The notes under the pieces were generated by a model that did not search any database, was not told the origin of the DNA, and worked only from the letters and a program-made list of their open reading frames with translations. DNA of 64,000 nt from a virus, in the IMG/VR virus record IMGVR_UViG_3300044692_000050, positions 1 through 64,000 of that record; one strand, 5' to 3'. Shown here one piece after another: positions 36,702 to 53,776 of this stretch (its first letter is position 1; each line of letters starts with the position of its first letter). Both the position numbers and the translations under genes were made by a program.

Positions 36702-37769
36702 TCAGGGGCGGTCATGCTGGCCCCCGTACTTCCCAACGTGCCGCAGGGCCTCTGTCGCGCAGCGCCGGGCATCGCGGTGCACCTCGCTTCCGCCGAACCT
36801 GACAATGCGCCATCCGGACTCTTCGAGTAGGCGCTGGCGCTGCCGGTCCCTGGCGATATCCGTCGGGCTGGAATGCGTAGCATGCCCGTCGATCTCAAAC
36901 CCGACCTTGACGCCGGGACCGACTCTCTCCGTCAATGCGAAGTCCAGGAAGAAGTTCCTTCCCTTGACAGTGACCGGGAACTGCGGCGCGAGGATGGCGG
37001 CCAGATCGGGCGGCCACACGTCCTTGCATGCCCGCAAGAACATCTGCTCGACAGGAGAGCCGAGGGCAGGGCCGGCCGCCGTGACGGAGAACAGGGTCAG
37101 GCGGAAGGCTCCCTTGTGGCTGGCCGACAGGAGCGCGAGGCGCGTGCCGCAGGCGCAGACCATCGTGATGACGTTGTAGCCCCCGCAGGTCTCCAGGGGA
37201 TTGCTGGGTTCGTAGCGCCTTTGATCCGGATGAGCGAAGACGTTCGCGCCGACGCCGCCCGCGATTGAGCTGTCACCGCAGCGCGGGCAGAGCAGGTCCC
37301 CATCTGGAGAGAACCTGAGAGGCCGCTTCGCCCATACCCAGGAACCCGGCTCCCCTTCCGGTGGCCCCCAGGCCGCGGGCCATGCGGGGAAGTCCGGGTG
37401 TAGCCGGTACGACTTTCCGTTGCCGACCGCGGGCGTTTCCTCGGCAGGGTCCCCGTCGGCCACCTCATCGGCGTACCGTCCATCGCGAAGCCAGCTCGAC
37501 GCATGGGGGATGTACTTGGTTTCGGTGCCGTTCTCACGGCATTTGACAGCGAACCGCCTGGCCGCGTCGATGATCTCGTCGGAGTTGCCGCTCTTGCGGG
37601 TCACCCGCTGCCACAGCCTCTGCGCGCCCGCCTTGCCGATCTTGCGCGGGTAGGCAGCCCAGAACTCATCGAACTTCGGGTCGGGCGTCGTGCGGCGACG
37701 TCGCCCTGCCGACGCCTCGACGGGGATCACGCTGAGCCCGTAGTTGGGATCACTCTCGCTGGGGGTCAT
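36702..37769 (-). CDS. Fusion: replication-protein C-terminal domain + Zn ribbon + DUF559 endonuclease
   Basis: FDEFWAAYPRKIGK...IPHASSWLRDGRY; CPRC; SPVE...LDFA..GFEIDGH..H...DRQRQR.L...GWRIVRFGGSEV. Confidence 0.82.
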   Translation of the reverse strand: MTPSESDPNYGLSVIPVEASAGRRRRTTPDPKFDEFWAAYPRKIGKAGAQRLWQRVTRKSGNSDEIIDAARRFAVKCRENGTETKYIPHASSWLRDGRYADEVADGDPAEETPAVGNGKSYRLHPDFPAWPAAWGPPEGEPGSWVWAKRPLRFSPDGDLLCPRCGDSSIAGGVGANVFAHPDQRRYEPSNPLETCGGYNVITMVCACGTRLALLSASHKGAFRLTLFSVTAAGPALGSPVEQMFLRACKDVWPPDLAAILAPQFPVTVKGRNFFLDFALTERVGPGVKVGFEIDGHATHSSPTDIARDRQRQRLLEESGWRIVRFGGSEVHRDARRCATEALRHVGKYGGQHDRP

Positions 37770-38798: not shown

Positions 38799-38999
38799 CT
38801 ACTCGGGCAGGTCGAACTCGCCGCGCTTGGCGCCCGCGAGGAAGCACTCCCACTCGTGCCGGGTGAACACGTGCGGGGCCTTGCTGCGGTCCTTGGTGTC
38901 GCGGACGCCTACCTCGTCGCCGCGGAACGCCACCTCGACGCAGCCGATGTCGTTGCTGCTGTCGCTCTTGAACCAGTGCGCGTCGTTCCAGTCGTTCAT
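38799..38999 (-). CDS. DUF397 protein
   Basis: WFKSDSS...CVEVA...VGVRDTKD...FTRHEW..FLAGAKRGEFD. Confidence 0.93.
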   Translation of the reverse strand: MNDWNDAHWFKSDSSNDIGCVEVAFRGDEVGVRDTKDRSKAPHVFTRHEWECFLAGAKRGEFDLPE

Positions 39000-39559
39000 G
39001 CCGCGTGCTCCCTCTCGGTGATGTTGTTTGCTGCCACGTACTCGGCCAAAGGTGCCGCGAGCCTGAGTGCGTCGTCGCGCTCCGCGCAGAACCATGCCAA
39101 CTCGCGTTCATTACGGGTCATCTCGACTCGCACCACTTCCCCGCCGTCGTAGACGAGGATGGCCGCGAGGTCGTCATCGAACAGCCAGTAGTCGTAGGAC
39201 GCGAGCCATTCCTCGTACGCCCTCTCACGACCTAGGACGCGTACGTCCTCACCCGCCTCCACCGAGGCCGGGGAAGCGTGCAGCAGGGAGAACCGGACAT
39301 AGTTCGTGACCGGCTCTGTCACGACCTTGACCCGCTGCATGGTGCGGCCGGATGCGCGGACCTCGCGGACGAGCTTCTTCCACGGCTCGCGCCATGCCGG
39401 GTCCACTGGCTGCCCGGCGAGGAACTGCGCGAAGGGCACCGTCTCGTTGTCGGCGGCGTAGTAGTCCAGCGTCTCTATGCGGAAGACGCGCCGCTTGAAC
39501 AGGCCGGTGAACTCCTGTCCTAGCTGTTCAAGCGTGGTCACGTTGTTCAGAGTGCTCAC
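38996..39559 (-). CDS. DUF6879-like protein
   Basis: FRIETLDYY...W...V...G..MQRV.VV.EP.T.Y...AGEDVR...DYWLFDD. Confidence 0.8.
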   Translation of the reverse strand: MSTLNNVTTLEQLGQEFTGLFKRRVFRIETLDYYAADNETVPFAQFLAGQPVDPAWREPWKKLVREVRASGRTMQRVKVVTEPVTNYVRFSLLHASPASVEAGEDVRVLGRERAYEEWLASYDYWLFDDDLAAILVYDGGEVVRVEMTRNERELAWFCAERDDALRLAAPLAEYVAANNITEREHAA

Positions 39560-39620
39560 ATCACTAGGCTAGCCCCTGACTTTCATTGAGGCCAGCCTTA
39601 CACTGACTTAAATGACTTAA
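39560..39620. promoter_or_regulatory. Divergent promoter region with TGACTT repeats
   Basis: Three TGACTT copies; TAGCCT-N6-GTG leaderless on minus strand. Confidence 0.6.
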
Positions 39621-39638
39621 CCCTTTGGGAGCGCGAGC

Positions 39639-40478
39639 ATGAGCCACCCGCCGTCACCGTCACAGCAGCGGCTTACCTCCATCCTCAGGGGCCTGCGCGA
39701 ACGCTCCGGGTTGAGCACCTACGCCCTCGGGAGTGCGCTCGGGTGGAGTCAATCCAGGGTGAGCCGCATTGAACGCGGTGAGGGCAAGGCGGCCAGCGTC
39801 GAGGAGGTCCAGGCGTGGGCCGATGCGACCAGCGCCGACACTGCGACCCATGCTGAGCTGGCCGCGCTCGCGGAGCAGGCATGGGACGAGACCCGGTCGT
39901 GGCGCGCTTCGCACCGCGGCGGTCTCGCTGCCCGGCAGCGCGAGATGGGCGAGTACGAGCAGCAAGCTACCGAGATCCTCCAGTTCACCCCCGCCACCAT
40001 CCCCGGCCTGCTTCAGTCCCCCGCCTATGCCCGGTCGGTCATGACCTTCGGGGATGTCACCAGTCAGGGCGGCATAGACGAGGCCGTAGCGGCGCGCATG
40101 AGGCGCCAGGGCGTGCTCCGCGACGAGGGCCGCAGGTTCGAGTACCTGCTGACCGAGGGCGCGCTCCGCTGGAATCCAGGGCCGCCCGAGGTCGCTGCCG
40201 AGCAACTCGCGCACCTTCTCGCCGCCGCGAAGCTCCCCGCCGTCTCGCTGTCGGTCATCCCGTTCAGCCGCCGCCCGGCCGGCGTGTACCTGCACCCCTT
40301 CACGATCTACCGCATCCCTGACGCCCCGGCTGTGCTGGTGGAGAACTACCACGCTGAGAGCTTCATCGCGGAACCCGGCAGTCTTGCCATCTACGAGCGG
40401 ACGTTCGCCATGCTGCTCGCTTCCGCCGTGACCGGTGATGAGGCGGCCGAGTTCATGCGGGCCGTTCTTCTCGGTTAG
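39639..40478 (+). CDS. XRE-DUF5753 regulator (Scr1/WhiJ-like)
   Basis: LRERSGLS...SQSRVSRIERG; IPGLLQSPAYA; ARMRRQ..L; L.EGALR. Confidence 0.92.
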   Translation: MSHPPSPSQQRLTSILRGLRERSGLSTYALGSALGWSQSRVSRIERGEGKAASVEEVQAWADATSADTATHAELAALAEQAWDETRSWRASHRGGLAARQREMGEYEQQATEILQFTPATIPGLLQSPAYARSVMTFGDVTSQGGIDEAVAARMRRQGVLRDEGRRFEYLLTEGALRWNPGPPEVAAEQLAHLLAAAKLPAVSLSVIPFSRRPAGVYLHPFTIYRIPDAPAVLVENYHAESFIAEPGSLAIYERTFAMLLASAVTGDEAAEFMRAVLLG

Positions 40479-40484
40479 TTCCTG

Positions 40485-40513
40485 TTGACCCTGACTCAAG
40501 TCTGACTTACGCT
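40485..40513 (+). promoter_or_regulatory. Promoter of the transfer operon with TGACT repeats in spacer
   Basis: TTGACC-CTGACTCAAGTCTGACT(17)-TACGCT. Confidence 0.7.
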
Positions 40514-40559
40514 TGCATCAGGTGGGCATCGTGCTCACCGGAGACCAAGTGGAGCCGAC

Positions 40560-40853
40560 ATGACGACCGGGCTACGCCCAGCCGCACCGAGCGCAGTCAG
40601 CCGCAAGAAGGACACGCGCCTGTTCGTCCCGGTGCGCGAAGCCGCCGACGCGCTCGGCGTATCGCGGTCGACCGTCATGCGGGCCAACGCGAAGGGCCAG
40701 TTCCCGCTCGTCAAGATCCTCGGCACATGGCGCACGCCACGCCGCTTCATCGATGACTTCCACCGCGCAGCCCTGCACAGCAAGGTCATCGTGCTGGAGG
40801 AGTACGCGGCCGAGTGGATGGAGCGCAACCCGGTCGCTGAGGCAGTGGCGTAG
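40560..40853 (+). CDS. Excisionase-like HTH (HTH_17-like)
   Basis: VPVREAADALGVSRSTVMR...GQFPLVKILGTWRTPR. Confidence 0.8.
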   Translation: MTTGLRPAAPSAVSRKKDTRLFVPVREAADALGVSRSTVMRANAKGQFPLVKILGTWRTPRRFIDDFHRAALHSKVIVLEEYAAEWMERNPVAEAVA

Positions 40854-41102
40854 ATGCCCGCGCAGACCCCCGCAAACGACTTCGGCCCCGGTGCTGTGAA
40901 CACCGGAGCCGAGATGAGCCGTACCCGCCAATCCGCATCAGCAAGGAGCGAACTCAATGGGGACGATAACACACCTCGCCGACTATCAGGCTCAGCGCCA
41001 CACCCCGATCCCTTCATGGGTAACCGGTCCCCTGACTCCCGCTCAGCTCCTGTTCATCCAGCTGGGCAACGAGCAGTACGCGATGCAGCAGGCGGCGACG
41101 TC

Positions 41103-41669
41103 ATGACCCCCGAGCCCTGGCTGGCCGCCAGCCTCGCCCGCATGGCCTCCCTGGATCTGTCCCCCCGGCACATCCTCGGCGAGATCCGCCTCCGCGAGGA
41201 GATGCAGCGCACCGCCACCGAGCCGGGTCTCGCTGAGCGCATCCTCGCCCGTTCCCCGCTCGCTCCTGGCGCGTCTCCCGCACCGAACCCCCGCCGTGAC
41301 GGCGGACGTGCCATGGAGCGAGCGCTGAAGGACGAGGGGCGCGCCAACCCTGCAGGCGCGCCCCTCCCCGAGCCTGACGTAGCCGCCCGCCTCGACGCCC
41401 AGTCCGTAGCCGAGCTTGAGGCTGTCGAGGTGGACGCGGAGAACGCCGAGTGCGAGCACCGCTCCCTCATCGCCCTGGCGAACACCCTCGCTGAACTAGC
41501 TGGGTGCGTCATCGACATCGCCACCGGGGACCTGGACACGGCCCGCGAGTTCCACCTCGAAGCCTCCATGGCGTCCGTGGACGCGGCTCCGCCCGGCACC
41601 CGTGAGGGCGAGGCGCTGGCCACCCTGCTGGACTTCGCCGGCAACGAGATCACCCGGAGGGCCGCCTGA
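41103..41669 (+). CDS. Hypothetical protein
   Basis: Helical ORF in rightward operon. Confidence 0.55.
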   Translation: MTPEPWLAASLARMASLDLSPRHILGEIRLREEMQRTATEPGLAERILARSPLAPGASPAPNPRRDGGRAMERALKDEGRANPAGAPLPEPDVAARLDAQSVAELEAVEVDAENAECEHRSLIALANTLAELAGCVIDIATGDLDTAREFHLEASMASVDAAPPGTREGEALATLLDFAGNEITRRAA

Positions 41670-42091
41670 TGGCCCGCAACGCCTTCAGCGCCTCCGACGC
41701 CAAGCAACTCACCTTCCAGCAGGTCGTGAAGCTCGGCCTCGCCCAGAAGGACGACGCCCAGCGTGACAGCGACGACGAGGAATGGGAGGACGAGTGATGG
41801 CCCGCGACCCGCTCCTCAAGGCCCTGCGCGGAATCAAGCGCGACGCGAATCGTGACATCCAGCTCGGCCGGGACAACGACGGCGACGAGGCGAACCAGCG
41901 CTGGCACCTCGCCGACGACGGCCTGCGCGCCGCGCGTCCCCGCCGCTGCCCCTCCTGGGTCTGCGGCCAGGGACGGAAGTCATGAAGCCCCGCCCCATCC
42001 AGGACCGGACCTGGGTTACCGAGGCGGACCCGGCCCTGTCCCGCGAGGACGGCCCGCTGCAGGTGCTGAGCACCAAGAAGGGCGGCACGTC

Positions 42092-42709
42092 ATGAGCCGC
42101 ATGAGCCGCGCCGACCGCGCCGCATGGAGGTCGGCGCGGACCCTGGCCGATCTCGGCCGCCTCGGCGCGCAGTGGCTGGAAGGCGACCTCGCCATGCAGC
42201 CCGCCTGGCGCGCAGGTCCCGACGAGGAGACGCAGCCGCTGATCCCGGCGCTCGCCGCGCTCAACCGGGCCGGGTTCTACACGACCGCCAGTTCACCCGG
42301 CGACGACGGCACGTGCTCCGGCAACGTGCACTGGCGGCAGCGGGCGGCTGTCGAGGGCTTCGCCGACGCTGACCTCGCGGGGCGCCTGTACCTGGCGGCC
42401 CATGAAGCGGGCCTCATCACCGTCACCCATGACCCGGCCACGCTGCCCCGCAAGCACTGGGACAAGGCCCTGGAGATTGCGGTGACCGAGCGGGACGGCA
42501 GCCCCTACACCTGGTTCGGCCAGCAGTGGTCCCGCCGCGAGATCCGTTCACGCCGGCACTGGGGCACCTGCCGCCGCGCCGCGCAGGACGCCCTGTGCTC
42601 AGCGTGGCAGGTAACCATCGTGGACCCGGAGTGGGTCCGCGAAGACCTGCTATGGGACGTCCTGGCCCAGGTCGCTGACGCACGCACCCCGGCCGAGGTG
42701 GTGCCGTGA
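42092..42709 (+). CDS. DUF6919-like protein (seen in actinomycete ICEs)
   Basis: W..ARTLADLG.L.A.WLEG...PDEET..L...L..LNRAGF.T..S.PG...QRAAVEGF...DPEW. Confidence 0.75.
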   Translation: MSRMSRADRAAWRSARTLADLGRLGAQWLEGDLAMQPAWRAGPDEETQPLIPALAALNRAGFYTTASSPGDDGTCSGNVHWRQRAAVEGFADADLAGRLYLAAHEAGLITVTHDPATLPRKHWDKALEIAVTERDGSPYTWFGQQWSRREIRSRRHWGTCRRAAQDALCSAWQVTIVDPEWVREDLLWDVLAQVADARTPAEVVP

Positions 42710-42915
42710 ATCTCCGCGTCGTCCTGTCCGCGGTCCTGTCCGGCGTGCTGATGACCGCCCTGGGCCACCCGGCCCCCAGCCCGGACCCGGCCACCGTCCT
42801 GCCCGTCCTGACCGCCGCCGCAGCCGTGGCGCTCGCCTGCGCCGTCCTGGCCTGGGCCGCGACCAGGGTCATCCACCGCTACTGCACGCGCCGGTACCTG
42901 CCGGCCATCACCTGA
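42706..42915 (+). CDS. Small 2-TM membrane protein (Spd-like candidate)
   Basis: Two hydrophobic segments; upstream of translocase. Confidence 0.55.
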   Translation: MNLRVVLSAVLSGVLMTALGHPAPSPDPATVLPVLTAAAAVALACAVLAWAATRVIHRYCTRRYLPAIT

Positions 42916-42927
42916 GAGGACACCGAC

Positions 42928-43140
42928 ATGGGCCTGTTCGGCAACAGGAACGCCAACCCCAAGTACAGCCGCATCGACTCATCGACCGGCCGCAACAAGC
43001 GGGACAAGAGCCCCCGCCGCGAGACCAGGGTGAACCCGCCGCCCCGCCAGATGGGCACTGCCAAAGTCGTGGACCGCGCCGCGTGGCGGCGCAGTCAGAG
43101 GACCGGCCGGCCGATCCAGCGCAAGACCTGGGGATGGTAG
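42928..43140 (+). CDS. Small basic protein
   Basis: GAGAGGA RBS; R/K-rich. Confidence 0.55.
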   Translation: MGLFGNRNANPKYSRIDSSTGRNKRDKSPRRETRVNPPPRQMGTAKVVDRAAWRRSQRTGRPIQRKTWGW

Positions 43141-43176
43141 TCCCCCGGCACCCGACATCCCTGACTGGAGAATGAA

Positions 43177-45594
43177 GTGAGCGAGCAGGAACGCCCGGAC
43201 GTGCCGGACTGGGCAGAAGCCGGGGAAGATGAGGCGCTTGAGGGTGTCGTCGTCCCGCTGCGCCCCGGCGCGCCCGAGCACGCTCTCGCCCCGTCGCCAC
43301 GCCACTCCGCACCCGGCCAGCCAGGCGAGCTCCGGCAGATCATCCCCGGCCAGTTCCGCTCCTGGGACGCGTTCCGCAAGCACTACGGCTGGCACCTGCA
43401 CCGCGCCGGGCATCACGCCGCCTACCACCTGTTCCCGTCACGGGCGATAACCCGGCTCGTCAACACCCTGCGGTATGCGGCAGTCGGCATCGGGAAGTTG
43501 CTGGTCGCGCTGATCGCCTGGTGGCACGTCGCCGAGCAGGCCTACCTGCGCAACGAGGCGGTCGCCGCGAACGACCCCCGGACTTACCTGCAACTGCAGA
43601 AAAACGGCAAGGAATCCCGCCTGACCCGCGGACTGGTCCTGCTCGCCTGCCTCGCCGCCGCGGTCCTCGCCGGCGCGCTGATCACCGTTCACGTCCCGCT
43701 GGCGTGGATCCCGATCGGCTGCGTCGCCGTCCCGCTGCTGGCCTGGGCCGGGCGTCCCGCCGACAAGCCCATCCTCGACTCTGCTGTCACCCCGGTCCAC
43801 CTCGAGCCGCTGTCCCGCGAGGTAATCGTCCGTGCACTGAGCACCCTGGGCATCGGCGAGCTCACCAAGGCCATCGGCAGGGATCCCGAGCGCGCCGTGG
43901 TCCTAGTCGACCCGATCGTCCGCGACGGGCCCGGCTGGCTGGCCCGCCTCGACCTGCCGCACGGCGTCACCGCGTCGGCGGTCATGGACAAGCGCGAAGA
44001 ACTCGCCTCCGGGCTGCGCCGCTCCATCGGCTGCGTGTGGCCCGAGAACGAGCGCAGGCGCCACCCCGGCGCCCTGAGCCTGTACGTGAGCCACGAGGAC
44101 ATGTCGCAGGCCTCTCAGCCGTCCTGGCCGCTGGCCAGGCGCGGCGCGGTGGACATGTTCCGGCCGGTCCAGTTCGCCACCGACCAGCGCGGCAAGCCGA
44201 TCACGATCACGCTCATGTTCGTGTCCATCATCATCGGGAGCGTCCCGAGGATGGGCAAGACGTTCCTGCTGCGCCTGCTGCTGCTGATCGCCGCCCTCGA
44301 TGTCCGCGCCGAGCTCCACGTCTACGACTTCAAGGGGACTGGTGACCTGGCAGCCCTGCGCGCGGTGGCGCACCGTTACCGGGTCGGCGACGACGAGGAC
44401 GACATCGAGTACTTCGTCGCCGACATGCGCGCCCTGCGCGAGGAGCTGCGGCGGCGGACCAAGGTGATCCGCGAGATCGCCGAGAAGCAGCCGGCGCTGT
44501 GCCCGGAGAACAAGGTGACCCCGGAACTGGCCAGCCGTAAGGATCTCGGCCTGCACCCCATCGTGATCGCCGCCGACGAGTGCCAGGTGCCGTTCACGCA
44601 CCCCGGTTACGGCAAGGAACTGGTGGAGATCGCCACCGACCTCGCCAAGCGCGGCCCGGCTCTGGGCATGATCGAGGAACTGGCGACCCAGCGCCCGGAC
44701 GCCAAGGCCATCCCGCGTGACATCAGCGCCAACGCCGTCCTGCGGATGTGCCTGAAGGTCATGGGTCACATCGAGAACGACATGATCCTCGGCCAGTCGG
44801 CACACAAGAACGGCTACAAGGCCACCATGTTCGACTTCGATGACAAGGGCATCTTCTACTTCTCCGGCGAGGGCAGCGCGCCGCGGATCTGCCGCAGCTT
44901 CGAGATCGACGGCCCGGCCGCCACGAAGATCGCCGCCCGCGCCCGCGCCATGCGGGAGCAGGCCGGCCGGCTGACCGGCTACGCGCTCGGCCAGGATCAG
45001 GCCGAAGAGGTCCGCTCGTTCCTCGCTGACGTGCTGGACGTGTTCGGCGCTGACGCCAAGCTGTGGCTGACGACGATCGCCGACCGGCTGCACGGCCACG
45101 TCTCGGGCGCCTACCCGGACATCACCCCGGAGGCGGTGGCGAGCCAGCTCCGCGCCCTGAACGTGACCGTGAAGGACGTGCGGGAGCCGGGCCAGGCGGT
45201 GCGCAAGGGCTGCGAGTGTACGGGCGTGCTCGCGGCGATGGGTGATGCGGTCCCGTCCGACCCGCCGCCTGCGCCCCGCCCGGTGCCGCAGCGAGCGCGC
45301 GCCGATGCCGTGCCGGATCCCGAAGCGCCCGCGCCGGCGGATGACTGGCCGCACGACTTCCAGGATCTGCTCCTCCATGCCGCCGAGCTCATCATCACCA
45401 CCCAGCACGGCTCAAAGCAGATGCTGCAGCGCAAGCTCCGGGTCGGGTTCGACCTCGTGGCCCGGATCATGGCCGAGCTCCAGGCCGCGAGGATCGTCGG
45501 ACCGGAGAACGGCACGCCGGCGCGGGATGTCCTGAAGCGTCCGGAGGAGCTTGAGGTGACTCTTGAGATGTTGCGGGGAGCGGTCCATGCCTAG
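43177..45594 (+). CDS. traB: FtsK/SpoIIIE-family DNA translocase, TraB-like, with extra FtsK-gamma domain
   Basis: N-terminal TMs; Walker A [9 protein letters not shown]; Walker B IAADECQ; ATQRPD; TraB-type wHTH, then [14 protein letters not shown]...IVGP gamma domain. Confidence 0.9.
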   Translation: [805 protein letters not shown]

Positions 45595-45610
45595 CCTCGT
45601 CCCCGTTTTG

Positions 45611-45733
45611 TGTCGCGGGACCGCAACAGCCCTGCTACCTGCAGAAATGCTGATCTGCGCGACGGTGCGCAACGCCCCTCCGCACAGACGGGCCGCCCTG
45701 ACCTGCGTTGTCGCGGAGCCTGGCGCCGCAACA
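45611..45733. repeat. clt-like 8-bp repeat cluster directly downstream of traB
   Basis: (C/G)CGC(A/G)AC(A/G) at 45621, 45657, 45667, 45726 and inverted TGTCGCGG at 45611 and 45709. Confidence 0.65.
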
Positions 45734-45773
45734 CGGAAGCCCCTCCCGGCCGCCTACATGGGGGTCTCGACCG

Positions 45774-46181
45774 ATGGCGCTGATGCCGCGGCTACACATC
45801 ACCTGCTCCCGGTGCGGCAAGCCCCGCGAAGGCATCGTCCACGTCTGCCGGTCGAACTCCAAGCGCAAGGCCACCGTCAAGCCGGTCATCTCGTTCGGCA
45901 AGTGCTCGTGCGGGAAGCCGATCGGGAACCCGCTGACTCACGTCTGCCGCAAGAAGTCCGACTTCAAGCGCCGCAAGTCCAAGGCCGAGAAGGCTGCCAG
46001 GGCCGCGGCACGCAAGAAGCGGCAGGCCGAGAAGCACGACTACCAGGCCTGCGCGGACAAGGACTGCAAGAAGTCGCTGTGCGTGGCCTACAAGACGGGC
46101 CGCAAAGACGGCTACGACGAGGGGTTCGAGGAAGGCTACGGGGCTGGGTTCGCCGCGGGCTCGGCGTCCGGTGCCGCGTGA
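45774..46181 (+). CDS. Basic multi-Zn-finger protein
   Basis: CSRCGK..HVC; CSCGK..HVC; H...C...C...C. Confidence 0.7.
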   Translation: MALMPRLHITCSRCGKPREGIVHVCRSNSKRKATVKPVISFGKCSCGKPIGNPLTHVCRKKSDFKRRKSKAEKAARAAARKKRQAEKHDYQACADKDCKKSLCVAYKTGRKDGYDEGFEEGYGAGFAAGSASGAA

Positions 46182-46191
46182 GGAGGCTGCC

Positions 46192-46437
46192 GTGCTGAAC
46201 CTGATCTTGTTCCTGCTCGCCGTCGTCGTCGTTTACGGCCTGTTCGTGCTGGTCAAGGCGGACAGGCAGTGCGGAACGTGCGGCGGCTGGGGCAACCGGA
46301 AGAAGCGCCGCCGCAACAAAGCCTGCTCCCGGTGCCACGGCACGGGACGCACGTTCTGGCCTGGCGCTCGGCTCGTCCACAAGGGCGCGGCGCTCGGATT
46401 GCGGCAGTTGCGCGAGCGATCGGAGCGTGAGTCATGA
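46192..46437 (+). CDS. Membrane-anchored DnaJ-type Zn-finger small protein
   Basis: TM plus CGTCGGWG...CSRCHGTG; typical neighbour of AICE traB. Confidence 0.7.
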   Translation: MLNLILFLLAVVVVYGLFVLVKADRQCGTCGGWGNRKKRRRNKACSRCHGTGRTFWPGARLVHKGAALGLRQLRERSERES

Positions 46438-46973
46438 CACGCGGAACGTGGCAGGGGTCAGGGACCTGGCAGACCAGCAGCCTGAGCCTCGGCGACCTGG
46501 TGAAACCGGCCGCCCTGCTGGCCGTCGCCCTTGCCGTCATGGCCCTGGTTGCGCAGGTCATCGTCTGGCTGGCTGTCATCCTCGGCGCCTTTCTCGCAGC
46601 AGGTACCGCCGCCGTGGTCGTCGTGTGGCGCCTGACTCGCCGCCGCGAGGCCCGTCACGCCGCCGAGCGTCCGTTCCTGGTCGCCCGCCCGGCTCCCGAC
46701 GCCCTGACCACGACGGCGATCCCGCAGGTCACGGCGCCTGCAGTGCAGGTTGTCGAGCACCATCACTACGTACACCAGGTCATCACTGCCCCGGACCCGG
46801 CATTCGCCGTCGTCCGGGCCGCGATCACCGGATCAGCAGCGGAGGGAGGTGAGCAACATGGGCAAGGACGACGCGAACAACAACGACCAGGCACTGAGCG
46901 ACAAAGAACGCGCAGGGCTGGACGTCGTGCTGACTGCCGGACGGTATTTCGGCAGCAAGGACAACCCGAATAA
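46434..46973 (+). CDS. Membrane protein
   Basis: Two TM helices; ATGA-coupled. Confidence 0.55.
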   Translation: MTRGTWQGSGTWQTSSLSLGDLVKPAALLAVALAVMALVAQVIVWLAVILGAFLAAGTAAVVVVWRLTRRREARHAAERPFLVARPAPDALTTTAIPQVTAPAVQVVEHHHYVHQVITAPDPAFAVVRAAITGSAAEGGEQHGQGRREQQRPGTERQRTRRAGRRADCRTVFRQQGQPE

Positions 46974-47134
46974 CCAGGCGAAAGGCAAGTAGCCGGGGCG
47001 GCCTGCCCGCCGTCCGGGCCAGCCTCGCCCCGGCCTGACCCCACCAGTCCCGCCGGCCGCACACGCCACCGCTGTGCGGCCGGCGGGATCACGACACCGC
47101 AAACCTGCCGACACGACGACGACCAGGGGACACG

Positions 47135-48238
47135 ATGAAGGTCATGGGAAAGCACTCGACGCCGCTCGACGGCGTGACGCTGGCGAACGGCCACGCGCTG
47201 GCACCGTTCACCATCCCGGCACCGCTTCAGGTCACCCCGCGCGGCCCGGCAGCCACCTGGCCGCAAGCTGTCGACGACGACGCGCCAGGTCACTTGCAGC
47301 GGTGGCGCGAAGCCGTGACTTCGCACCGCGGCTGGCTCGCCGCCGTCCCGATCATCCTCGTCAACTCCGTCGCGTTCTGCGGCCAGCTGGCATTCCTGCG
47401 CGGTCACCTGCCGTGGATCCTGCCCGGCCAGGTGCTCGTCGCGGCCACCCTGGAGTCAGTCGCGGTCTACCTGGCATGGCAAGCGCACCTCGCTCTCGCC
47501 GCCGATGACTCGGCGCTGCGGCTGCGACTGGCTGCTTACTCGTTCGCCGCGGTCATCGGCGTCATGAACTATTCGCATTACATGGCGCCGCACTGGCGGC
47601 CGACGTTCGCCGCGGTCACCTTCGGCCTGATGTCGCTGTCGTCGCCGTGGCTATGGTCGGTGCACTCCCGCCGCGCCAGCCGTGACGCGCTGAAGGCAGC
47701 CGGGCTGATCGAGGCGCACGCCGTCCGGCTCGGCATGAACCGCTGGATGTGGCACCCGGTCAGGTCGTGGCGGGTCATGTTCCGCGCCACCTGGGAAGGC
47801 GAGACCGATCCGGCCCGCGCCATCGCCCTGATCGCGCCGCAAGTCGGCGACCTGGACCGGTTCCAGGTCGCCCCGGAAACCACGCCCGCCGCCGACCCGG
47901 AAGTCACCGCTGAGCAGGCCGTCCAGGTCACCCCGGGGCCGCCCTCGGGTGCCGACCTGGAGCCCGCGCCGGCGGCGGTTCCAAGTCAGCCGCCCCGCCG
48001 CCCTGGAGCCGCCGCCAAAGCCGGCCGCAAGTCGGCGCCGCGATCCGGCAAGCCGGCCGCCCCGGCGCGCATTTCTGACGCCGACCTGCTCGGCCAGATC
48101 CGCGGCGTGCTCGCTGACAAGCCGGACGCCAACATCACCGACGTGGCGAAGGAGCTAGGCCGCGGCCGGGACCGGATCCGGCCGCTGCTCGAGCAGGCTC
48201 GCGCCGCCGCACCCGAGGGACAGGACCCCCGGCCGTGA
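47135..48238 (+). CDS. DUF2637/SpdA-like membrane protein with C-terminal HTH
   Basis: Four TMs (A..LESVA.YL...NYSH...SPWLW), Pro-rich linker, ITDVAKELGRGRDRIR. Confidence 0.75.
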   Translation: MKVMGKHSTPLDGVTLANGHALAPFTIPAPLQVTPRGPAATWPQAVDDDAPGHLQRWREAVTSHRGWLAAVPIILVNSVAFCGQLAFLRGHLPWILPGQVLVAATLESVAVYLAWQAHLALAADDSALRLRLAAYSFAAVIGVMNYSHYMAPHWRPTFAAVTFGLMSLSSPWLWSVHSRRASRDALKAAGLIEAHAVRLGMNRWMWHPVRSWRVMFRATWEGETDPARAIALIAPQVGDLDRFQVAPETTPAADPEVTAEQAVQVTPGPPSGADLEPAPAAVPSQPPRRPGAAAKAGRKSAPRSGKPAAPARISDADLLGQIRGVLADKPDANITDVAKELGRGRDRIRPLLEQARAAAPEGQDPRP

Positions 48239-48522
48239 CCGAACCCCACCCTCCCCACACCGCCGCCGCGATCGACGCCATCGAAGCGGCCATCGACACG
48301 GAGACAGACCTCGGCGGCTGGCTGTCCGCCGTCCTGGTCTACGCCGCTGCCCGCAAAGGCACCCTGGACGCCCTCACCGCCGGCCGTCCCGGCTCGTGGG
48401 AAGCGGCCCATGTCGACCGCCTCGCCCGCGGCCTGGCCTTCGACGACGACGGGCTGCAGTGGTACCGCGAGGACGACCGGGCGCGGCGTGAGGCCGGGAA
48501 GGCGGCACGCAATGACGGCTGA
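48235..48522 (+). CDS. Hypothetical protein
   Basis: L.AGRPGSWEA motif; GTGA-coupled. Confidence 0.6.
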   Translation: MTEPHPPHTAAAIDAIEAAIDTETDLGGWLSAVLVYAAARKGTLDALTAGRPGSWEAAHVDRLARGLAFDDDGLQWYREDDRARREAGKAARNDG

Positions 48523-48890
48523 GCATGCCCGATGTGCTCGCACGACTGGTGATCCACTAGACTGATACCCAGCGTTCCGGTCCGTGACCAGCAGAAACGC
48601 TCCGTCCTTTGCTGATCTCCGACCCTGAATGGTGCCCTCCTCGTGTCCGCCTGGCTCCCGTGGCTCGTCGCTGCCGCGATCCTCCTCGTCGTGCCCGTCG
48701 TCCTAGGCCTGTTCGTCACCGACGAGCCCGACAATGCGATACGCCACGAGTCCAGCGATGACCACCAGGAGGACGCAAGAGACCCGGCGCCCGGCCTCCG
48801 ACTCGCCGCGTGAGCGCACCATTACCCTCACCCGCCCCTGTGTGCGCATACTGTGCGTAACACCGCAGTACACGCGAGGGGGAACGCCCG

Positions 48891-49649
48891 TTGAGCAGCG
48901 ACAACGTGCCCGTGGCCACTGAGGCATCATGCCCCGGCAGTTGCAACGACCCGTACCGCAAGGCCGTAGCCGCCTACAAGCAGGCACTCGCCGACTACGA
49001 TCCCCTTGACCCCGAGCAGTCCCGGCCCGAACCCCCCGAGATCCGGCCGTGGCCCGGCAACCCGTGGTGCGGACGGTGCAGGTCCCGGATCCGCGAGCAG
49101 CTCGCCGAGCTCGACGACCTCGCTGCCCTCCTAGGGGCCGCTGCCGACGGCCACCGCGCCTCACCAGGCGGCGAGCGGGTCTCCGGGTCCGCCGAGCCGC
49201 CATCCCCGTCCCGCGCCGGCGATGACCTCGATGAGCTCACGGTCATGCTCTCCGGCTGGGAAGGCGCCTACCGGGACCTGCGGGAGTGGCCGGCGCTCAC
49301 CCGCCGCGGGAACCTAGCCTCGGTCCTCACCACGTGCGTCGCGTGGCTGACCCTCCACCTGGACGAGATCTTGCTGGCCCCATTCGCGGCCGATTTCGGC
49401 ACCGAGGTGATGCAGTGGCATCGCGAGCTCACCGCTAAGTCCAAGGCCGGGGCGCGGACGCTGCGCAAGCCGCTGCGCTGCCCTCGCTGCCGCCTGCTGC
49501 TGCTGACGTGGACCGAAGGCGACGCTGACGTCCGGTGCGGCAACCCGTCGTGCCACGCGGTGATCCCGCTCGCGGAGTACGAGAACGAGACCGAGCGGGT
49601 CGCCGCCGCCCTGGAACGCGGCGAGGCCGACGCGACCGAGGCGGCCTGA
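48891..49649 (+). CDS. Zn-finger late-gene regulator candidate
   Basis: CPGSCN...CGRC...CPRC...C...C; located at early/late boundary. Confidence 0.65.
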   Translation: MSSDNVPVATEASCPGSCNDPYRKAVAAYKQALADYDPLDPEQSRPEPPEIRPWPGNPWCGRCRSRIREQLAELDDLAALLGAAADGHRASPGGERVSGSAEPPSPSRAGDDLDELTVMLSGWEGAYRDLREWPALTRRGNLASVLTTCVAWLTLHLDEILLAPFAADFGTEVMQWHRELTAKSKAGARTLRKPLRCPRCRLLLLTWTEGDADVRCGNPSCHAVIPLAEYENETERVAAALERGEADATEAA

Positions 49650-49732
49650 CCTGCCAGGACGCCGCGCCGGGTGTTTGACAAACCGGCATGCCCACCTGTG
49701 TACTATCTCTAACGGATCACTGTGCCCTTATG

Positions 49733-49758
49733 CCCCTGGTGTCTCACCAGGGGTTTTT
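49733..49758 (+). terminator. Intrinsic terminator
   Basis: CCCCTGGTG-TCT-CACCAGGGG-TTTTT. Confidence 0.85.
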
Positions 49759-49778
49759 CGCGTATCTAGGGGGTCCGT

Positions 49779-50030
49779 GTGGCTGGCGACCTTGACGTGA
49801 ACGCCCTGCTGTCCGGTGCCGACGCGGCCCGGTATGCAGGGGTGAGCGTACGCGTGATCGTGAACTGGCGGAACCGCGGCCACCTCCCCGTCGCTACCGA
49901 CGAGCGCGGCAACGAGATCCGCGACAGCCGGGGCCGGCCGAAGTACCGGCTCCTCGACGTGGCCAAGGCCGAGAACGCGACACGGCAGCGGGCCGAGCAG
50001 ATGGCCAGCCAGTTGCGCCGCGCCGCCTGA
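49779..50030 (+). CDS. MerR-like HTH protein
   Basis: DAARYAGVSVRVIVNWRNRGHL...GRPKYRLLDV. Confidence 0.8.
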   Translation: MAGDLDVNALLSGADAARYAGVSVRVIVNWRNRGHLPVATDERGNEIRDSRGRPKYRLLDVAKAENATRQRAEQMASQLRRAA

Positions 50031-50069
50031 CGGCCCGGCAATACCGCTCTGACCTGGTATTATGGGGGC

Positions 50070-50273
50070 ATGGCCATGCAGGAGTTCCGCGACGGGCACT
50101 GGCAGGCCTCGATCCCGCTGCCGTTCTACGGGCTGTTCCACGTCCGCTGCGACTGCGGGCGCAAGTTCTGGGGCCTCAATGACCGGCGCACAGGAGCGCG
50201 TTACCGCGAGCACTACGAACGGGCACACGTCCGGCTCAAGGCGTTCCTGGGTACCGGCCGGCCATCAGCGTGA
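50070..50273 (+). CDS. Small Zn-finger protein (leaderless)
   Basis: CDCG...HY..H; TATTAT-N6-ATG. Confidence 0.6.
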   Translation: MAMQEFRDGHWQASIPLPFYGLFHVRCDCGRKFWGLNDRRTGARYREHYERAHVRLKAFLGTGRPSA

Positions 50274-50291
50274 CCAGTTCCGGGGGGAACC

Positions 50292-50489
50292 ATGACCATC
50301 ACCACCGGCCAGGCCCTCCCGGGTGACGTCATCCTTGACGGCGACGGCACCTGCTGGCAGCGGGGAGACGAGTTCTACAACTGGGCCACGTTCTCCGGCC
50401 CCGTGCTCCACTTCGGCCCGTGGGAAGCCTCGTACGGTCCTCAGGGTGAGCTGACCCTCCTGGTGAGGGAGGGGAAGCCGGTCCGCTAG
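50292..50489 (+). CDS. Hypothetical protein
   Basis: PGDVILD.DG..WQ. Confidence 0.6.
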   Translation: MTITTGQALPGDVILDGDGTCWQRGDEFYNWATFSGPVLHFGPWEASYGPQGELTLLVREGKPVR

Positions 50490-50492
50490 GCG

Positions 50493-50765
50493 TCAGTCGT
50501 CACATTCCCCGATCCACAGGTCCACGATCTCGTGCTCGTTGATGGCCGCGATCAGCTCACGTGCGCCCTCGGCTACTTCACCGCTGCTGCCGTCCGCCAG
50601 CCCTTCCAGGTACGGGATGTGCGCCTTCGTGACGAGCATCTCTCCGCGCAGCGTCCCGTCGTGATCGAAATACCTGCGCGCCAGCGGGTACTTCAGCGCC
50701 ACCGGCAGATCGCGTGCAGGCGGGACCTCTTTCGGGACCGGCCGCCAGTACAGCCCGAAGCTCAT
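50493..50765 (-). CDS. Hypothetical protein
   Basis: GGAGGGG RBS. Confidence 0.6.
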   Translation of the reverse strand: MSFGLYWRPVPKEVPPARDLPVALKYPLARRYFDHDGTLRGEMLVTKAHIPYLEGLADGSSGEVAEGARELIAAINEHEIVDLWIGECDD

Positions 50766-50835
50766 TTCGTTCCCCTCCTGCGGCGCAACGCCGCCATGAT
50801 GTCCGACGCGCTCTCAGGCTCACGCTGCGCGGATG

Positions 50836-51000
50836 TCACGCGGGCGTGCACCAGCTGTCCCAGGAACCGCCATCGGGCGGCGGGTCAGCCATGGGCGCTG
50901 GCTTGTCGACAACCTCTCCCGCTCCCTCGCATACCGGGCACGGGTTGCGGTTGACGCTGGAGTCGGTGCCGCTTCCATAGCAGCGCGGGCAGATCTTCAT
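50836..51000 (-). CDS. DnaJ-type Zn-finger small protein
   Basis: CPRCYGSG...CPVCEGAG. Confidence 0.5.
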   Translation of the reverse strand: MKICPRCYGSGTDSSVNRNPCPVCEGAGEVVDKPAPMADPPPDGGSWDSWCTPA

Positions 51001-51290
51001 TGCTGGCCTTCTTTCTGCAGCTTGCAGATCCCGCACTTGCACGTGAGAGCATGACGGGTCCTGCGGGGTTCGTCCTCAACGACGGGAAGGGCCGGGACCG
51101 GGTGCTTGGCACCGGAGCGCTTAGCGCGTAGCAGCCGCAGCCCTTCGGTGAGAAGCGCGCTCTTGACGCCGCGCCCGCCGCCGAGCCGCTCCACTTCGGC
51201 TTCCAGCCATGCCACGTCCTCGGCTGGCGCGTTCCAGCCGAGGAACGGGTTGTTATGGACCCCGTGGCGGCTGCCGGTCCTGCCAGCCAT
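50997..51290 (-). CDS. Ribbon-helix-helix-like regulator with C-terminal Zn knuckle
   Basis: H..P.LGW..PAE...WL...KSALLTEGL; H..TCKCGIC. Confidence 0.6.
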   Translation of the reverse strand: MAGRTGSRHGVHNNPFLGWNAPAEDVAWLEAEVERLGGGRGVKSALLTEGLRLLRAKRSGAKHPVPALPVVEDEPRRTRHALTCKCGICKLQKEGQQ

Positions 51291-51827
51291 CTAGTGGCCG
51301 CCCTCGATGATCCGCCTGACGGTCGCTTCACGCTGGGCCGCAGCCTTCCGGGCAGTCTCGGGATGCGCGGCGTCGAATGCCGCCAGCGCCTCGGCTGCCT
51401 CGATGATCCGCTGCTGGTCCTCGTCGGCCTCCGGCCCGCCGAATGGGTTGGCGTAGTCCTTGTCGAACCGCTCAGCGGCGTTGATGCCGGAGCCCTGCTC
51501 GGCGTAGTCCAGGGCGGTGACGAGCCGCTCGCGCTCGCCGTCAAGGTCGGGCGGGATGGCGGCTGAGACCTCGCGGTAGACCTGCTCGATCTGCGCGGCC
51601 TCATCGGCAGTGAGAAGCATCGGGCCGATGGCCGCGACATATTCGGGGCCGGCCTTGGCGAGGGCGGCCTTCGGGGCGGCGTGGTGCGCGCCGAGGTGCC
51701 GGGTGATCTCCTTGCCCTCGATGTACAGCGTGGTCGACGGCTGGTGCAGGTGATCGACCGGCTTGATGGTGACGACGGCAGTGCGCCCGTCGCGGAGTGT
51801 CTTGGTAAGGGCCGTCCGCTGGGTCAT
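51291..51827 (-). CDS. Hypothetical protein
   Basis: GAAGGGAAG RBS; first gene of antisense cassette. Confidence 0.65.
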   Translation of the reverse strand: MTQRTALTKTLRDGRTAVVTIKPVDHLHQPSTTLYIEGKEITRHLGAHHAAPKAALAKAGPEYVAAIGPMLLTADEAAQIEQVYREVSAAIPPDLDGERERLVTALDYAEQGSGINAAERFDKDYANPFGGPEADEDQQRIIEAAEALAAFDAAHPETARKAAAQREATVRRIIEGGH

Positions 51828-51844
51828 CTCGCTTCCCTTCCTTC

Positions 51845-51886
51845 GGTGCTAAGCACCACTCTACCCATGATGCAAAGCACCGTCAA
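51845..51886 (-). promoter_or_regulatory. Sigma70-type promoter with palindromic operator
   Basis: TTGACG-N17-TAGAGT; GGTGCT-A-AGCACC at 51845-51857. Confidence 0.75.
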
Positions 51887-51993
51887 GTGCCAGGTCGGCC
51901 CCGATCCCCGCGCCGGGCAGGGCCTCACCGCCGCCGCGCCCGGCGCGGGCCACCTACCCGGGACGCGCTCCGCGCAACCACGAGAGAAGGTCT

Positions 51994-52188
51994 GTGAGAC
52001 TCCGCCAGTCGCTCACCACCCGCCAGGGCCGCAAAGTCCCCCGCATGCTGTACCAGCAGCAAGGACCCGAACCGGCCGACGACGATCCGATCATCGGACT
52101 CGTGGACACACCGGAGTTGGCCGCGCTGATCGTCGCCGCCGTCAACGCCTACGAGGCCCGCGCGCAAGACGGCCCTCCAGGCACCTGA
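51994..52188 (+). CDS. Hypothetical protein
   Basis: GRKV...Y...D..IG..DT.ELA..IV.AVN. Confidence 0.55.
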   Translation: MRLRQSLTTRQGRKVPRMLYQQQGPEPADDDPIIGLVDTPELAALIVAAVNAYEARAQDGPPGT

Positions 52189-52200
52189 GCAGGTGATCCG

Positions 52201-52521
52201 GTGAGCGGATGGACAGGATCCACGAGGCGCCAGCGGCTCCCCGCCAACTGGCAGGCACTCCGCCGCCAGATCCTCGAGCGCGACGGCTGGCAGTGCACCG
52301 AGATCCTCCCGTCCGGCGCCCGCTGCCCCGCCGCCGCAACTGACGTGGACCACGACCGGGCCATGACGGATGACCACTCACCCGAGCGGCTGTCGTCCAA
52401 GTGCCGCCGTCACCACGCCATCAAGAGCGCCGCCGAGGGCGGCCGTGCGTCGGGCGCGCGAGCCAAGGCCCGCGCCGCAGCCAGGTACCGGCCCGCTGAA
52501 CGGCATCCCGGTTTGCTCTGA
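52201..52521 (+). CDS. Packaging-associated HNH endonuclease
   Basis: W.GSTRR.RLP.NW...R..ILERDG.QC...C...ATDVDH...DDHS...C..HH..KS..EG. Confidence 0.88.
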   Translation: MSGWTGSTRRQRLPANWQALRRQILERDGWQCTEILPSGARCPAAATDVDHDRAMTDDHSPERLSSKCRRHHAIKSAAEGGRASGARAKARAAARYRPAERHPGLL

Positions 52522-52531
52522 AGGAGGGCTG

Positions 52532-52816
52532 ATGGCCAGCCGCAAGAACGAGCCCGAGCAGGAAAGCCCCGAGGAAACGCCCGCTCCCGAACCGCAGCCC
52601 GAACCCGAGACCGCTGAGCCCGAGACCGGCTTCCCCTGCCCCTGCGGCTCCCGCCACGAGCTCGACCCGGACATCGCCCGCCTGGCCTCCGCTGACCCGA
52701 TCACCATCGTCCACGCCGCTGAGGGCACATGGCGCATCCCCCGCGTCTTCCTCGCCGCCCACGACGCCAGCCAGCTCGCGGAGGCCGCCGCCCAGTACGG
52801 ATTCGAGGAGGCCTAG
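52532..52816 (+). CDS. Hypothetical protein
   Basis: AAGGAGG RBS; CPCG..H. Confidence 0.6.
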   Translation: MASRKNEPEQESPEETPAPEPQPEPETAEPETGFPCPCGSRHELDPDIARLASADPITIVHAAEGTWRIPRVFLAAHDASQLAEAAAQYGFEEA

Positions 52817-53025
52817 ATGCCGACCCCGCCTTCGCTGTTCCAGCGGATCTGCTTCCTCGTCGCGTTCCTCCTGTTCGCCGTCGCCGCTATCCAGTCCGCA
52901 GCCGCGAATATCCCCGTGACGCCGTGGCTCATCCCCGGCGGTCTCGCCGCGGTAGCTCTCGGCCTGTTCCTGCCCTGGTAGCGCGCCAACCCGGCAATAG
53001 GCCGCTGACCTGGTAATATAGGGTC

Positions 53026-53187
53026 ATGGCAGACGAACCGCAGGACCCGATGACCTCGCTGGCCGAAGGCGCGGCGCAAGTGCACGAGCTGTTCACTGCC
53101 TACCAGGAATCCGGCTTCTCGCGACCCGAGGCGCTCCAGATCGTGATCGGCATCATCACCGCCTACATCGGCAAGGGCGGTCAGTGA
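53026..53187 (+). CDS. Small helical protein (leaderless)
   Basis: MADEPQDPMTSLAEGAAQVHELFTAYQESGFSRPEALQIV; TAATAT-N6-ATG. Confidence 0.6.
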   Translation: MADEPQDPMTSLAEGAAQVHELFTAYQESGFSRPEALQIVIGIITAYIGKGGQ

Positions 53188-53384
53188 GCCCGCGTGTCAC
53201 CTGGAGACTCTGGCGGCTGATCCGCTACCACTACCCGTACACGACGGCCGCCGTCCTGCTCGTGGCAGCCTCGGTGACGATGCTGTTCTTTACGCCGACC
53301 CGCAAAGCCGGCCTCATCCTGCTGACTGTCCTCGCCGTCAGCGCCCTGTCTACCGCGCAGAAGCGGTACAGCAACCGCGCTTAA
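53184..53384 (+). CDS. Small 2-TM membrane protein
   Basis: Two hydrophobic segments. Confidence 0.5.
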   Translation: MSPRVTWRLWRLIRYHYPYTTAAVLLVAASVTMLFFTPTRKAGLILLTVLAVSALSTAQKRYSNRA

Positions 53385-53431
53385 CCCCGGCCCACTCCGC
53401 GGCCCGTGCCGCACCCGACACAGGAGGCACC

Positions 53432-53776
53432 ATGGCCCGCACCCCGCTCACGTCCCACAACCTGGCCGACGGCTCCGCTCCGGGCGCCGTCCTCGCCGAC
53501 CCTGCCGGCGACCCGGCCGATGCGGTCAACGGCAACAGCTACCCCAACACCGGCCTCACCGGCCTCCGGGTGAAGAACACCGACACCAACCCCCACACGA
53601 TCACCCTGATCACGCCCGGCGCGGTCGACGGCACCCTCGCCATCGCGGACGACCCGCGCACCATCCCGGCGTCGAGCACCAAGTGGATCGGCCGCCTCCC
53701 CGTCGCCGTGTACGGAGCGACCGTCCAGTTCACCGCGGACAGCGCCCTGCTCAACGTGACCGTCCTCGAGCCCTGA
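53432..53776 (+). CDS. Conserved actinophage beta-rich protein (possible virion accessory)
   Basis: AGGAGG RBS; AD.VNGNS..N.G...L.VKN...T.T..TPG.VDG. Confidence 0.65.
   Translation: MARTPLTSHNLADGSAPGAVLADPAGDPADAVNGNSYPNTGLTGLRVKNTDTNPHTITLITPGAVDGTLAIADDPRTIPASSTKWIGRLPVAVYGATVQFTADSALLNVTVLEP

Follow-up and report, generated by a model that had tools for sequence, protein, structure and literature searches.

We report that a 102,340-bp virus record in IMG/VR (IMGVR_UViG_3300044692_000050, here G000), best explained by its gene content as a single temperate siphovirus of ~102 kb with a lambda-like layout, appears to carry, resident in its genome, the transfer half of an actinomycete plasmid or actinomycete integrative and conjugative element (AICE), that is, a TraB-type translocase of double-stranded DNA (dsDNA), a clt-like site and small membrane partners. 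The window analysed corresponds to bases 1-64000 of this record, which is listed as linear, is 98% complete by CheckV and has a GC content of ~0.69; the genes in question form a rightward block (~40485-50489) located between the early and the late phage genes and apart from the late operon. The gene content and intactness of the block, its repeat cluster, its contiguity with the phage genes, its conservation in a sister phage and its recurrence in other phages were observed directly, and we put at about 0.6 the probability that the block is a working transfer cassette, which would be expressed, bind DNA and move the excised or replicating phage circle between hyphae. The host is probably a mycelial soil actinomycete belonging to the Streptosporangiales. 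Genes were called using the third-position GC bias, and the called genes were then scanned against family libraries.

The TraB translocase and its clt-like repeat array

The central gene of the block (43177-45594, + strand) encodes an 805-residue protein that, judged by its domains and motifs, is a TraB-type membrane-anchored dsDNA translocase. In addition to N-terminal membrane helices (residues ~101-190), it has a motor domain and a winged helix, then a linker rich in Pro and an additional FtsK gamma domain (residues 730-786; PF09397 E 6.8e-14). The Walker A (GSVPRMGKT, residues 354-362), Walker B (IVIAADE, residues 462-468) and ATQRPD motifs are invariant across 33 aligned homologues and all three are kept here, in keeping with the first-pass annotation of this DNA, which had described an FtsK/SpoIIIE ATPase with intact Walker motifs. 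Moreover, searches with the TraB family profile hit both the FtsK motor structure 2IUT (E 2.6e-12) and FtsK gamma (E 1.7e-6). The protein has both the FtsK/SpoIIIE domain of an AICE Tra protein and the membrane-anchored Walker ATPase of a TraB system, and it is predicted to form a hexamer. At 45280-45594 of the window (residues ~700-805) the Pro-rich linker and the gamma domain follow the winged helix as a second DNA-reading module.

The family comprises 3,049 proteins at E <= 1e-20 among 8,000 candidates scored and occurs in two lengths, ~690 residues and ~800 residues with the extra gamma domain; the latter domain is common to the ~25 nearest homologues and absent from the ~690-residue forms, including most of the phage-borne ones. 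The closest relatives (P0002-P0004) are 70% identical, with metagenome contigs (L061 and L062) too short to show the context. The best annotated relative (tblastn), 47% identical over 75% of the length, is a Tra protein encoded by a circular 18-kb element from Streptomyces. The same element carries an integrase, a gene annotated as 'helix-turn-helix domain-containing', Prim-Pol, DUF2637, NUDIX and GntR genes, and because of this gene set it represents a textbook pSAM2-like AICE in its excised form. Hence, as to whether the ATPase belongs with TraB and Tra of pSAM2 or with chromosomal FtsK, a comparison proposed at first pass, our data place it with the TraB proteins found on plasmids and AICEs of actinomycetes. 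A search of 50,697 deposited phage genomes gave matches to TraB in the 60-residue gamma domain only.

Directly after the ATPase gene the first-pass annotation had noted a cluster of 8-bp repeats, and the counts bear this out. The motif TGTYGCGG is present in 16 copies in the window, of which five, in both orientations, fall within 165 bp (45569-45733) covering the traB stop and the following intergenic region, while ~0.03 would be expected in that length. Corresponding arrays were sought in the 250 bp that follow the stop codons of traB homologues, and many homologues have 8-mer clusters of their own within the first 120 bp past traB (G002, G003, G005, L014, L017 and L036), e.g. CGGAACAC five times in G002, and CGCGACAC, CTAGCGGC and CCGCAACA four times each in G003, G005 and L036, respectively. 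A constant position with a changing word is the pattern that co-evolution between a recognition site and the DNA-reading domain of its translocase would be expected to leave. As far as sequence goes, the 8-bp repeat cluster beside traB resembles that of a clt site with TraB recognition sequences (TRS), and binding of TraB to it is predicted.

The cassette in a sister phage and in other tailed phages

The phage closest to G000 by terL is the IMG/VR record IMGVR_UViG_3300048798_000032 (G006; 103,428 bp), with terL 74% and capsid 76% identical. It has its portal and MuF genes at the two ends and ORFs (open reading frames) that cross the end-start junction, suggesting that it is probably circularly permuted. 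The two phages share head and tail genes (50-76% identical), Ro60 and TnpB, while nearly all early genes differ; in the early/middle region essentially only the membrane protein encoded at 47135-48238 in G000 is shared (59% identity over 229 residues). BLAST and direct searches found no TraB in G006; however, the gene just upstream of this membrane protein encodes a 696-residue P-loop ATPase, and its family profile aligns over 475 columns with that of TraB (hhalign probability 96.3%, E 2e-9), with Walker A, Walker B and the Q-R residues in register. This match needed the family profile, hhalign of the single G006 sequence against the TraB profile A1 being negative; language-model neighbours of the G006 ATPase, which we take as a lead only, are Actinomycetota FtsK/SpoIIIE clusters. 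Between the ATPase and the membrane-protein gene of G006 lies AATGGCCG, repeated five times. Both genomes therefore have a Tra ATPase, an 8-mer array and the membrane protein in the same position upstream of the late genes (terS), and the two ATPases appear to have diverged, or to have been exchanged, beyond BLAST recognition. This shared trio provides the strongest argument, on comparative grounds, suggesting that the cassette is a selected part of the phage lineage. G006 differs from G000 in having two integrases and a nearby GntR regulator, and in that its ATPase is detectable only by profile comparison.

Some features of G006 were noted in passing. Its terL (L055:5100-7844, minus strand) encodes 914 residues, among them a LAGLIDADG-type insert (PF14528) that probably represents an intein or a homing-endonuclease insertion and that the 582-residue terL of G000 lacks. 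At 24407-24940 (L056:4407-4940, minus strand), 2 kb upstream of the Tra-type ATPase, G006 has a gene for an NlpC/P60 cell-wall hydrolase, of which no counterpart was found in the G000 block. Both phages have TnpB/IS605 OrfB genes: one copy in G000 (93156-94367; L142:9156-10367) is 64% identical to a G006 protein, and G006, with such genes at 14487-15902 and 28274-29959, has at least two more.

Beyond this pair, scanning IMG/VR with the single TraB protein gave nothing and an alignment-based scan was required, by which five other records were found to carry a TraB homologue. Portal, HK97 capsid, prohead protease or terL was confirmed in four of the five, and tape-measure in two, including the fifth; these phages have HK97-type heads instead of an SPP1-type portal. 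One integrase each was found in G002, G003 and G005, and Prim-Pol in none of the records searched (G000-G004). By Pfam search, GntR is present in G002, in G003 (beside TraB) and in G006 (4 kb from the Tra ATPase). The G003 genome (IMGVR_UViG_3300036782_000035, L041-L043; 52,761 bp, CheckV 100%) is circular, since a 376-residue ORF with 86% third-position GC runs across its end-start junction. At 22059-27578 of G003 the sole integrase (573 residues) lies 1.7 kb beyond traB with two GntR-domain matches between them on the opposite strand, which looks like a compact lysogeny and transfer arrangement of kil/kor-like type.

Among plasmids in PLSDB we found pPaSha2 (CP052773.1), a 41.9-kb circular 'plasmid' of the cultured strain Pseudonocardia alni Shahu, which is annotated with terminase, portal, protease, capsid, holin, Bet and DUF2637 and has a TraB homologue. 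Like G000 it combines a tailed-phage gene set with DUF2637 (in G000 a distant relative only), TraB (42% identity) and a RecT/exonuclease pair (46% and 42%); unlike G000 it is less than half the size, has an HK97-type head, is extrachromosomal in a cultured strain and has a TraB without the gamma domain. We found no paper calling pPaSha2 a phage. The survey for co-occurrence of phage genes and traB suggested at first pass thus shows that the combination recurs, in five tailed-phage records, in pPaSha2 and in the sister phage G006.

Genes of the block and their place in the phage genome

All ORFs of the block are open and read on the + strand. The first gene (40560-40853) encodes a putative 97-residue DNA-binding protein of the HTH_17/excisionase family; the earlier term 'Xis-like' is too firm, the helix-turn-helix (HTH) matches behind it being sub-threshold (phrog_66 E 4.8e-5; PF12728 E 2.9e-5, with 24.7 bits against a cut-off of 27). 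It is followed by a 271-residue protein (40854-41669) that we leave unassigned to any family, having no Pfam, PHROG or NCBIfam match, and by a DUF6919 protein (41852-42709; PF21897 E 1.7e-45), for which the earlier DUF6919-like assignment was correct. Homologues of the latter adjoin TraB in G001 and L033, and one more DUF6919 flank ORF was seen among the 17 loci described below. Next come a 69-residue protein with two membrane helices and a basic 70-residue protein (42706-43140). Hydropathy and sequence point to small membrane proteins in the block at 42706-42915, 46171-46437, 46434-46973 and 48643-48813; small membrane proteins had been reported at first pass.

Downstream of traB, a Cys-rich basic protein with repeated CxxCGKP / HVCR motifs (45708-46181) is kept directly after TraB in nearly all relatives (tblastn, at least 15 loci). 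Then follow (46171-46973) an 88-residue protein combining a single membrane helix with a CxxC..CxxC zinc ribbon, homologues of which are found after TraB in L011, L013, L016, L032 and L033, and a 179-residue membrane protein; these two could be called Spd-like by their build only. The zinc ribbons at 45708-46181 and 46171-46437 account for the Zn-finger proteins of the first-pass annotation. The protein at 47135-48238, shared with G006, is a multi-pass membrane protein and a distant relative of DUF2637 (Pfam E 0.001, below the cut-off; 16 of the 26 members of its family match PF10935). The tail of the block (48235-50489) encodes 95-residue and 56-residue (membrane) proteins, a 252-residue DNA-binding protein with a zinc ribbon (phrog_1568), another HTH_17 protein (49779-50030) and a pair of small ORFs.

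While all parts that the first-pass annotation had listed for the module are present at or near the positions it gave, its start at 38799 is too far left and takes in three genes outside the transfer block, which ends at ~50489. These encode DUF397 (38799-39095, - strand; Pfam E 9.6e-16), DUF6879 (38996-39559, - strand; Pfam E 3.1e-44) and an XRE-DUF5753 regulator (39639-40478, + strand; Pfam E 1.3e-45), and are regulatory or accessory neighbours, not transfer machinery. XRE/DUF397 pairs are common actinomycete cassettes with an uncertain role, and here the trio may regulate the block. A terminator-like hairpin (40460-40476) comes just before a candidate promoter (TTGACC-17-TACGCT, 40485-40520, + strand) with two CTGACTYA motifs; this promoter, claimed earlier for the operon, is visible by eye but falls below the threshold of the promoter scan. 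The motif CTGACTYA occurs in five copies in the window, including those at 39603, 40491, 40502 and 55258. Three copies lie in the two intergenic regions bordering the XRE-DUF5753 gene, one of them upstream of that gene, and the copy at 55258 precedes the HNH start by 13 nt, where the late region begins. The motif may, by its placement, be an operator common to rightward transcription units, and because copies precede both the block and the XRE-DUF5753 gene, the product of this gene may be the block regulator.

With respect to the phage frame, the left end of the record holds a DNA methylase, an HTH protein and then the sole integrase, a 466-residue tyrosine recombinase (2792-4192, + strand; PF00589 E 3.6e-24, the single match across the 102-kb record); a search of the whole record for serine recombinases was negative. 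A long leftward operon of small genes includes two methyltransferases and the early recombination genes encoding a RecT-like annealing protein and an exonuclease VIII-like protein (24279-26371, - strand; phrog_2780 E 3e-56 and phrog_412 E 9.5e-93). The mixed regulatory region at 28.8-40.5 kb has XRE regulators and a replication-initiator-like winged helix fused to a DUF559/MTES_1575 nuclease domain (36702-37769, - strand; phrog_270 'replication initiation protein' E 9e-21 for residues 23-113; PF18741 E 1.9e-11), which is the probable replication initiator of the phage and not an AICE Rep type. The late operon (55278-64000, + strand) starts with HNH, terS, terL, portal, MuF-like (VG15) and scaffold genes and the beginning of the capsid gene, and continues past the window with capsid, a 1409-residue tape-measure, tail genes, an amidase and lysozyme-like lysis pair, TnpB and Ro60. 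Terminase, portal, capsid, tape-measure and lysis genes and an integrase are thus present on one contiguous genome, as in a temperate tailed phage (Caudoviricetes). The terL product is 53% identical to that of Corynebacterium phages, 1,991 actinophage records were matched, and a terL scan of species genomes found nothing. The first 40 bases of the window are a run of G and C (GGGGGGGGGGCGGGGCGGGGG...), which looks like a sequencing or assembly end artefact; therefore the left end of the record is not a biological terminus.

Readings of the block and comparison with known systems

According to the transfer reading, the phage integrase would excise the circle, or episomal replication would occur, and membrane-anchored TraB hexamers would bind the 8-bp repeats beside traB through the C-terminal winged-helix and gamma domains. 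TraB would then pump the double-stranded circle through a hyphal contact into the neighbouring mycelium, where the small membrane proteins and the DUF2637-like protein may aid its passage across septal cross-walls before the circle re-integrates.

Several observations weigh against this reading. When the 47135-48238 protein was compared with AICE DUF2637 proteins, hhalign and an independent profile test were both negative, such that of the earlier DUF2637/SpdA-like label the weak Pfam match and the family matches stand but the relation is only distant; the Spd and DUF2637 assignments of the block, made from sequence, are weak. No ORF runs convincingly across the end-to-start junction of G000, and its ends are not closed. 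A Pfam search of the record found no real GntR, the repressor that normally restrains TraB in kil/kor-type control. None of the runs listed as holding the stretch is an RNA run. Furthermore, in 17 long genome or metagenome loci with TraBs 55-67% identical, the 86 large flank ORFs include five integrases, four Prim-Pol, four DUF2637, two NUDIX, two GntR and one tape-measure; most close relatives in these unselected loci are in ordinary AICE contexts, and an HK97 capsid gene was found on the TraB contig in 0 of 21 species genomes. When 93 TraBs were placed in a maximum-likelihood tree, the seven rows from phages were scattered and interleaved with AICE-like rows, requiring seven changes, no fewer than shuffled labels. 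This scatter fits repeated and possibly short-lived captures; the cassette therefore would seem to move between AICEs and phages repeatedly, phage carriage being the minority state of the TraB family.

Could the block instead be an independent AICE, nested in or in tandem with the phage, or an assembly chimera, such that the moving unit is not the phage? AICEs do insert into other islands, phage-ICE (integrative and conjugative element) tandems are described for Streptococcus (PMC13651849), and the replication-initiator-like gene lies only 2.8 kb left of the block. According to published criteria, an AICE has Int, Rep and Tra in one att-flanked unit of 9-24 kb, with its own integrase and with att direct repeats that usually lie at the 3' end of a tRNA (PMC3218068). 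Against this, the sole integrase in 102 kb is 36 kb away from the block, and in the record we found no RepSA (PF20199; the same search was positive in five of five Streptomyces control genomes), Prim-Pol (PF09250), NUDIX (Pif) or tRNA gene and no direct repeat of at least 25 bp anywhere. The first-pass statement that a second integrase, RepSA and flanking att repeats are lacking is accordingly upheld, also at the module borders. Its description of the module as an intact AICE-type one does not hold as worded: the KorSA/GntR and Pif/NUDIX regulators, a Rep (RepSA or Prim-Pol), an integrase of its own and flanking att repeats are all missing, and lacking AICE integrase, RepSA/Prim-Pol, NUDIX, tRNA and att repeats the module cannot move on its own. 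As to a chimeric assembly at the borders, two soil-metagenome runs, probably the source sample, hold the stretch in contigs from a different assembly program (Logan). One contig covers 37500-45451 and extends 15 kb further left while another covers 45422-57400 and extends 36 kb further right; neither differs from the record, and the depth is 54-58x in 29 of 30 bins (low-depth 'joints' with 21-22-nt sides were regarded as foreign or repeat matches). Both block borders are thus bridged, the block equals the phage in abundance, and phage genes extend to both record ends with no host housekeeping gene visible at either, leaving a chimera or a nested element very improbable. The 30-bp overlap at 45422-45451, where the Logan assembly breaks, lies inside the gamma-domain coding region, and at 44804-45467 the summed depth is 67x with short low-depth contigs, an indication that this soil sample contains related TraB or FtsK sequences that have words in common with this region.

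Three other readings take the block as part of the phage. It might work within one mycelium only, with no mating, and pump phage DNA through septal cross-walls while the phage grows lytically or lysogenises. Intramycelial spreading in Streptomyces is, in the account of PMC4447253, driven by the same machinery, and the position of the block among early/middle genes, apart from the late operon, and its conservation in the sister lineage would suit such a role; however, TraB does both in plasmids, so that sequence does not separate the two, and for intramycelial use alone no phage example is described. We consider this unlikely, and slightly more so that the block is a passenger, i.e. a stranded AICE transfer half that entered the phage by recombination and is now inert or in decay. 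The latter would agree with a TraB family that is mostly AICE-borne, with polyphyletic phage copies and with the missing AICE regulators, but every ORF of the block is open and the invariant TraB residues and the clt-like array are kept; moreover, G006 retains the syntenic ATPase, repeats and membrane protein despite an ATPase divergence invisible to BLAST, which argues for long-term selection. Lower still do we rate a different phage role for the ATPase, for example in genome segregation, superinfection exclusion or dimer resolution with a tyrosine recombinase through the gamma domain. This domain activates the tyrosine recombinase XerD in the case of FtsK, as reported in PMC3130261, and 'FtsK-like DNA translocase' genes occur in Gordonia and Mycobacterium phages, yet these match only the gamma domain here, most phage-borne homologues lack it, the motor clusters with plasmid and AICE Tra proteins, and the 8-mer array and conserved small partners fit a transfer system.

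The transfer of a phage circle between hyphae has precedents, and the idea of a phage with a tra locus is hence less new than the first-pass annotation implied. The plasmid-phages pZL12/phiZL12 (Zhong et al. 2010, J Bacteriol 192:3747) and pFP4 (Chen et al. 2012, Plasmid 68:170), as cited in PMC3583192, PMC4487206 and PMC6950372, are likewise ~90-100 kb tailed-phage genomes of mycelial actinomycetes with a Tra-type transfer locus and both virion and mating routes, and conjugal transfer of pZL12 is cited as requiring a tra gene together with two genes beside it (PMC3583192). Elements of the pZL12 type are ParAB plasmids, whereas G000 has an integrase and no ParB_N (present in the pZL12-like control plasmid NZ_CP108705.1), and its terL is only 38% identical to theirs. 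The TraB profiles A1 and A4 found no homologue in the pZL12-like plasmid, the transfer genes of which may belong to another lineage or be too divergent to detect, while TraB of G000 groups, by sequence, with the AICE lineage. PF01580 was rejected as a TraB detector as it missed G000 itself, and its absence from the pZL12-like plasmid is therefore uninformative.

Compared with the TraB/clt/Spd dsDNA conjugation systems of Streptomyces plasmids and AICEs as described for pSVH1, pSAM2 and pIJ101 (PMC2440964, PMC3218068, PMC4447253), the block resembles them in its membrane-anchored FtsK-like ATPase, the 8-bp array beside traB and the small membrane proteins downstream. It differs in lacking RepSA/Prim-Pol, an integrase of its own, KorSA/GntR and Pif/NUDIX, in its location on a 102-kb tailed-phage replicon and in the gamma domain added to TraB. 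The conjugative prophage Phi1207.3 is reported to move by a conjugation-like route, as we propose here; it and the Streptococcus phage-ICE tandems (PMC4260502, PMC13651849) differ in phylum and, as these sources present them, in using ssDNA type IV secretion or an unknown mechanism and no TraB. A literature search of incomplete coverage turned up no description of TraB cassettes in tailed phages that integrate.

A wider proposal, which we regard as tentative and probably too far-reaching, is that tailed phages which integrate in mycelial actinomycetes make up a recurrent class with a TraB/clt/membrane-protein cassette under selection, swapped between divergent TraB lineages at one position, and would routinely move naked dsDNA genomes between hyphae; in G000 the gamma domain might then couple the arrival of DNA to integration by the tyrosine recombinase. 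The question is directly testable with pPaSha2, as Pseudonocardia alni Shahu is genetically tractable (PMC8928166). If the transfer reading is true, virome catalogues and AICE surveys, the latter requiring Int, Rep and Tra, would both misclassify such elements. Finally, the phage would gain a second route of spread that needs no virions, receptors, burst or particle and bypasses resistance at the level of adsorption, and the line between prophage and conjugative element would be blurred in the bacteria that make most antibiotics.

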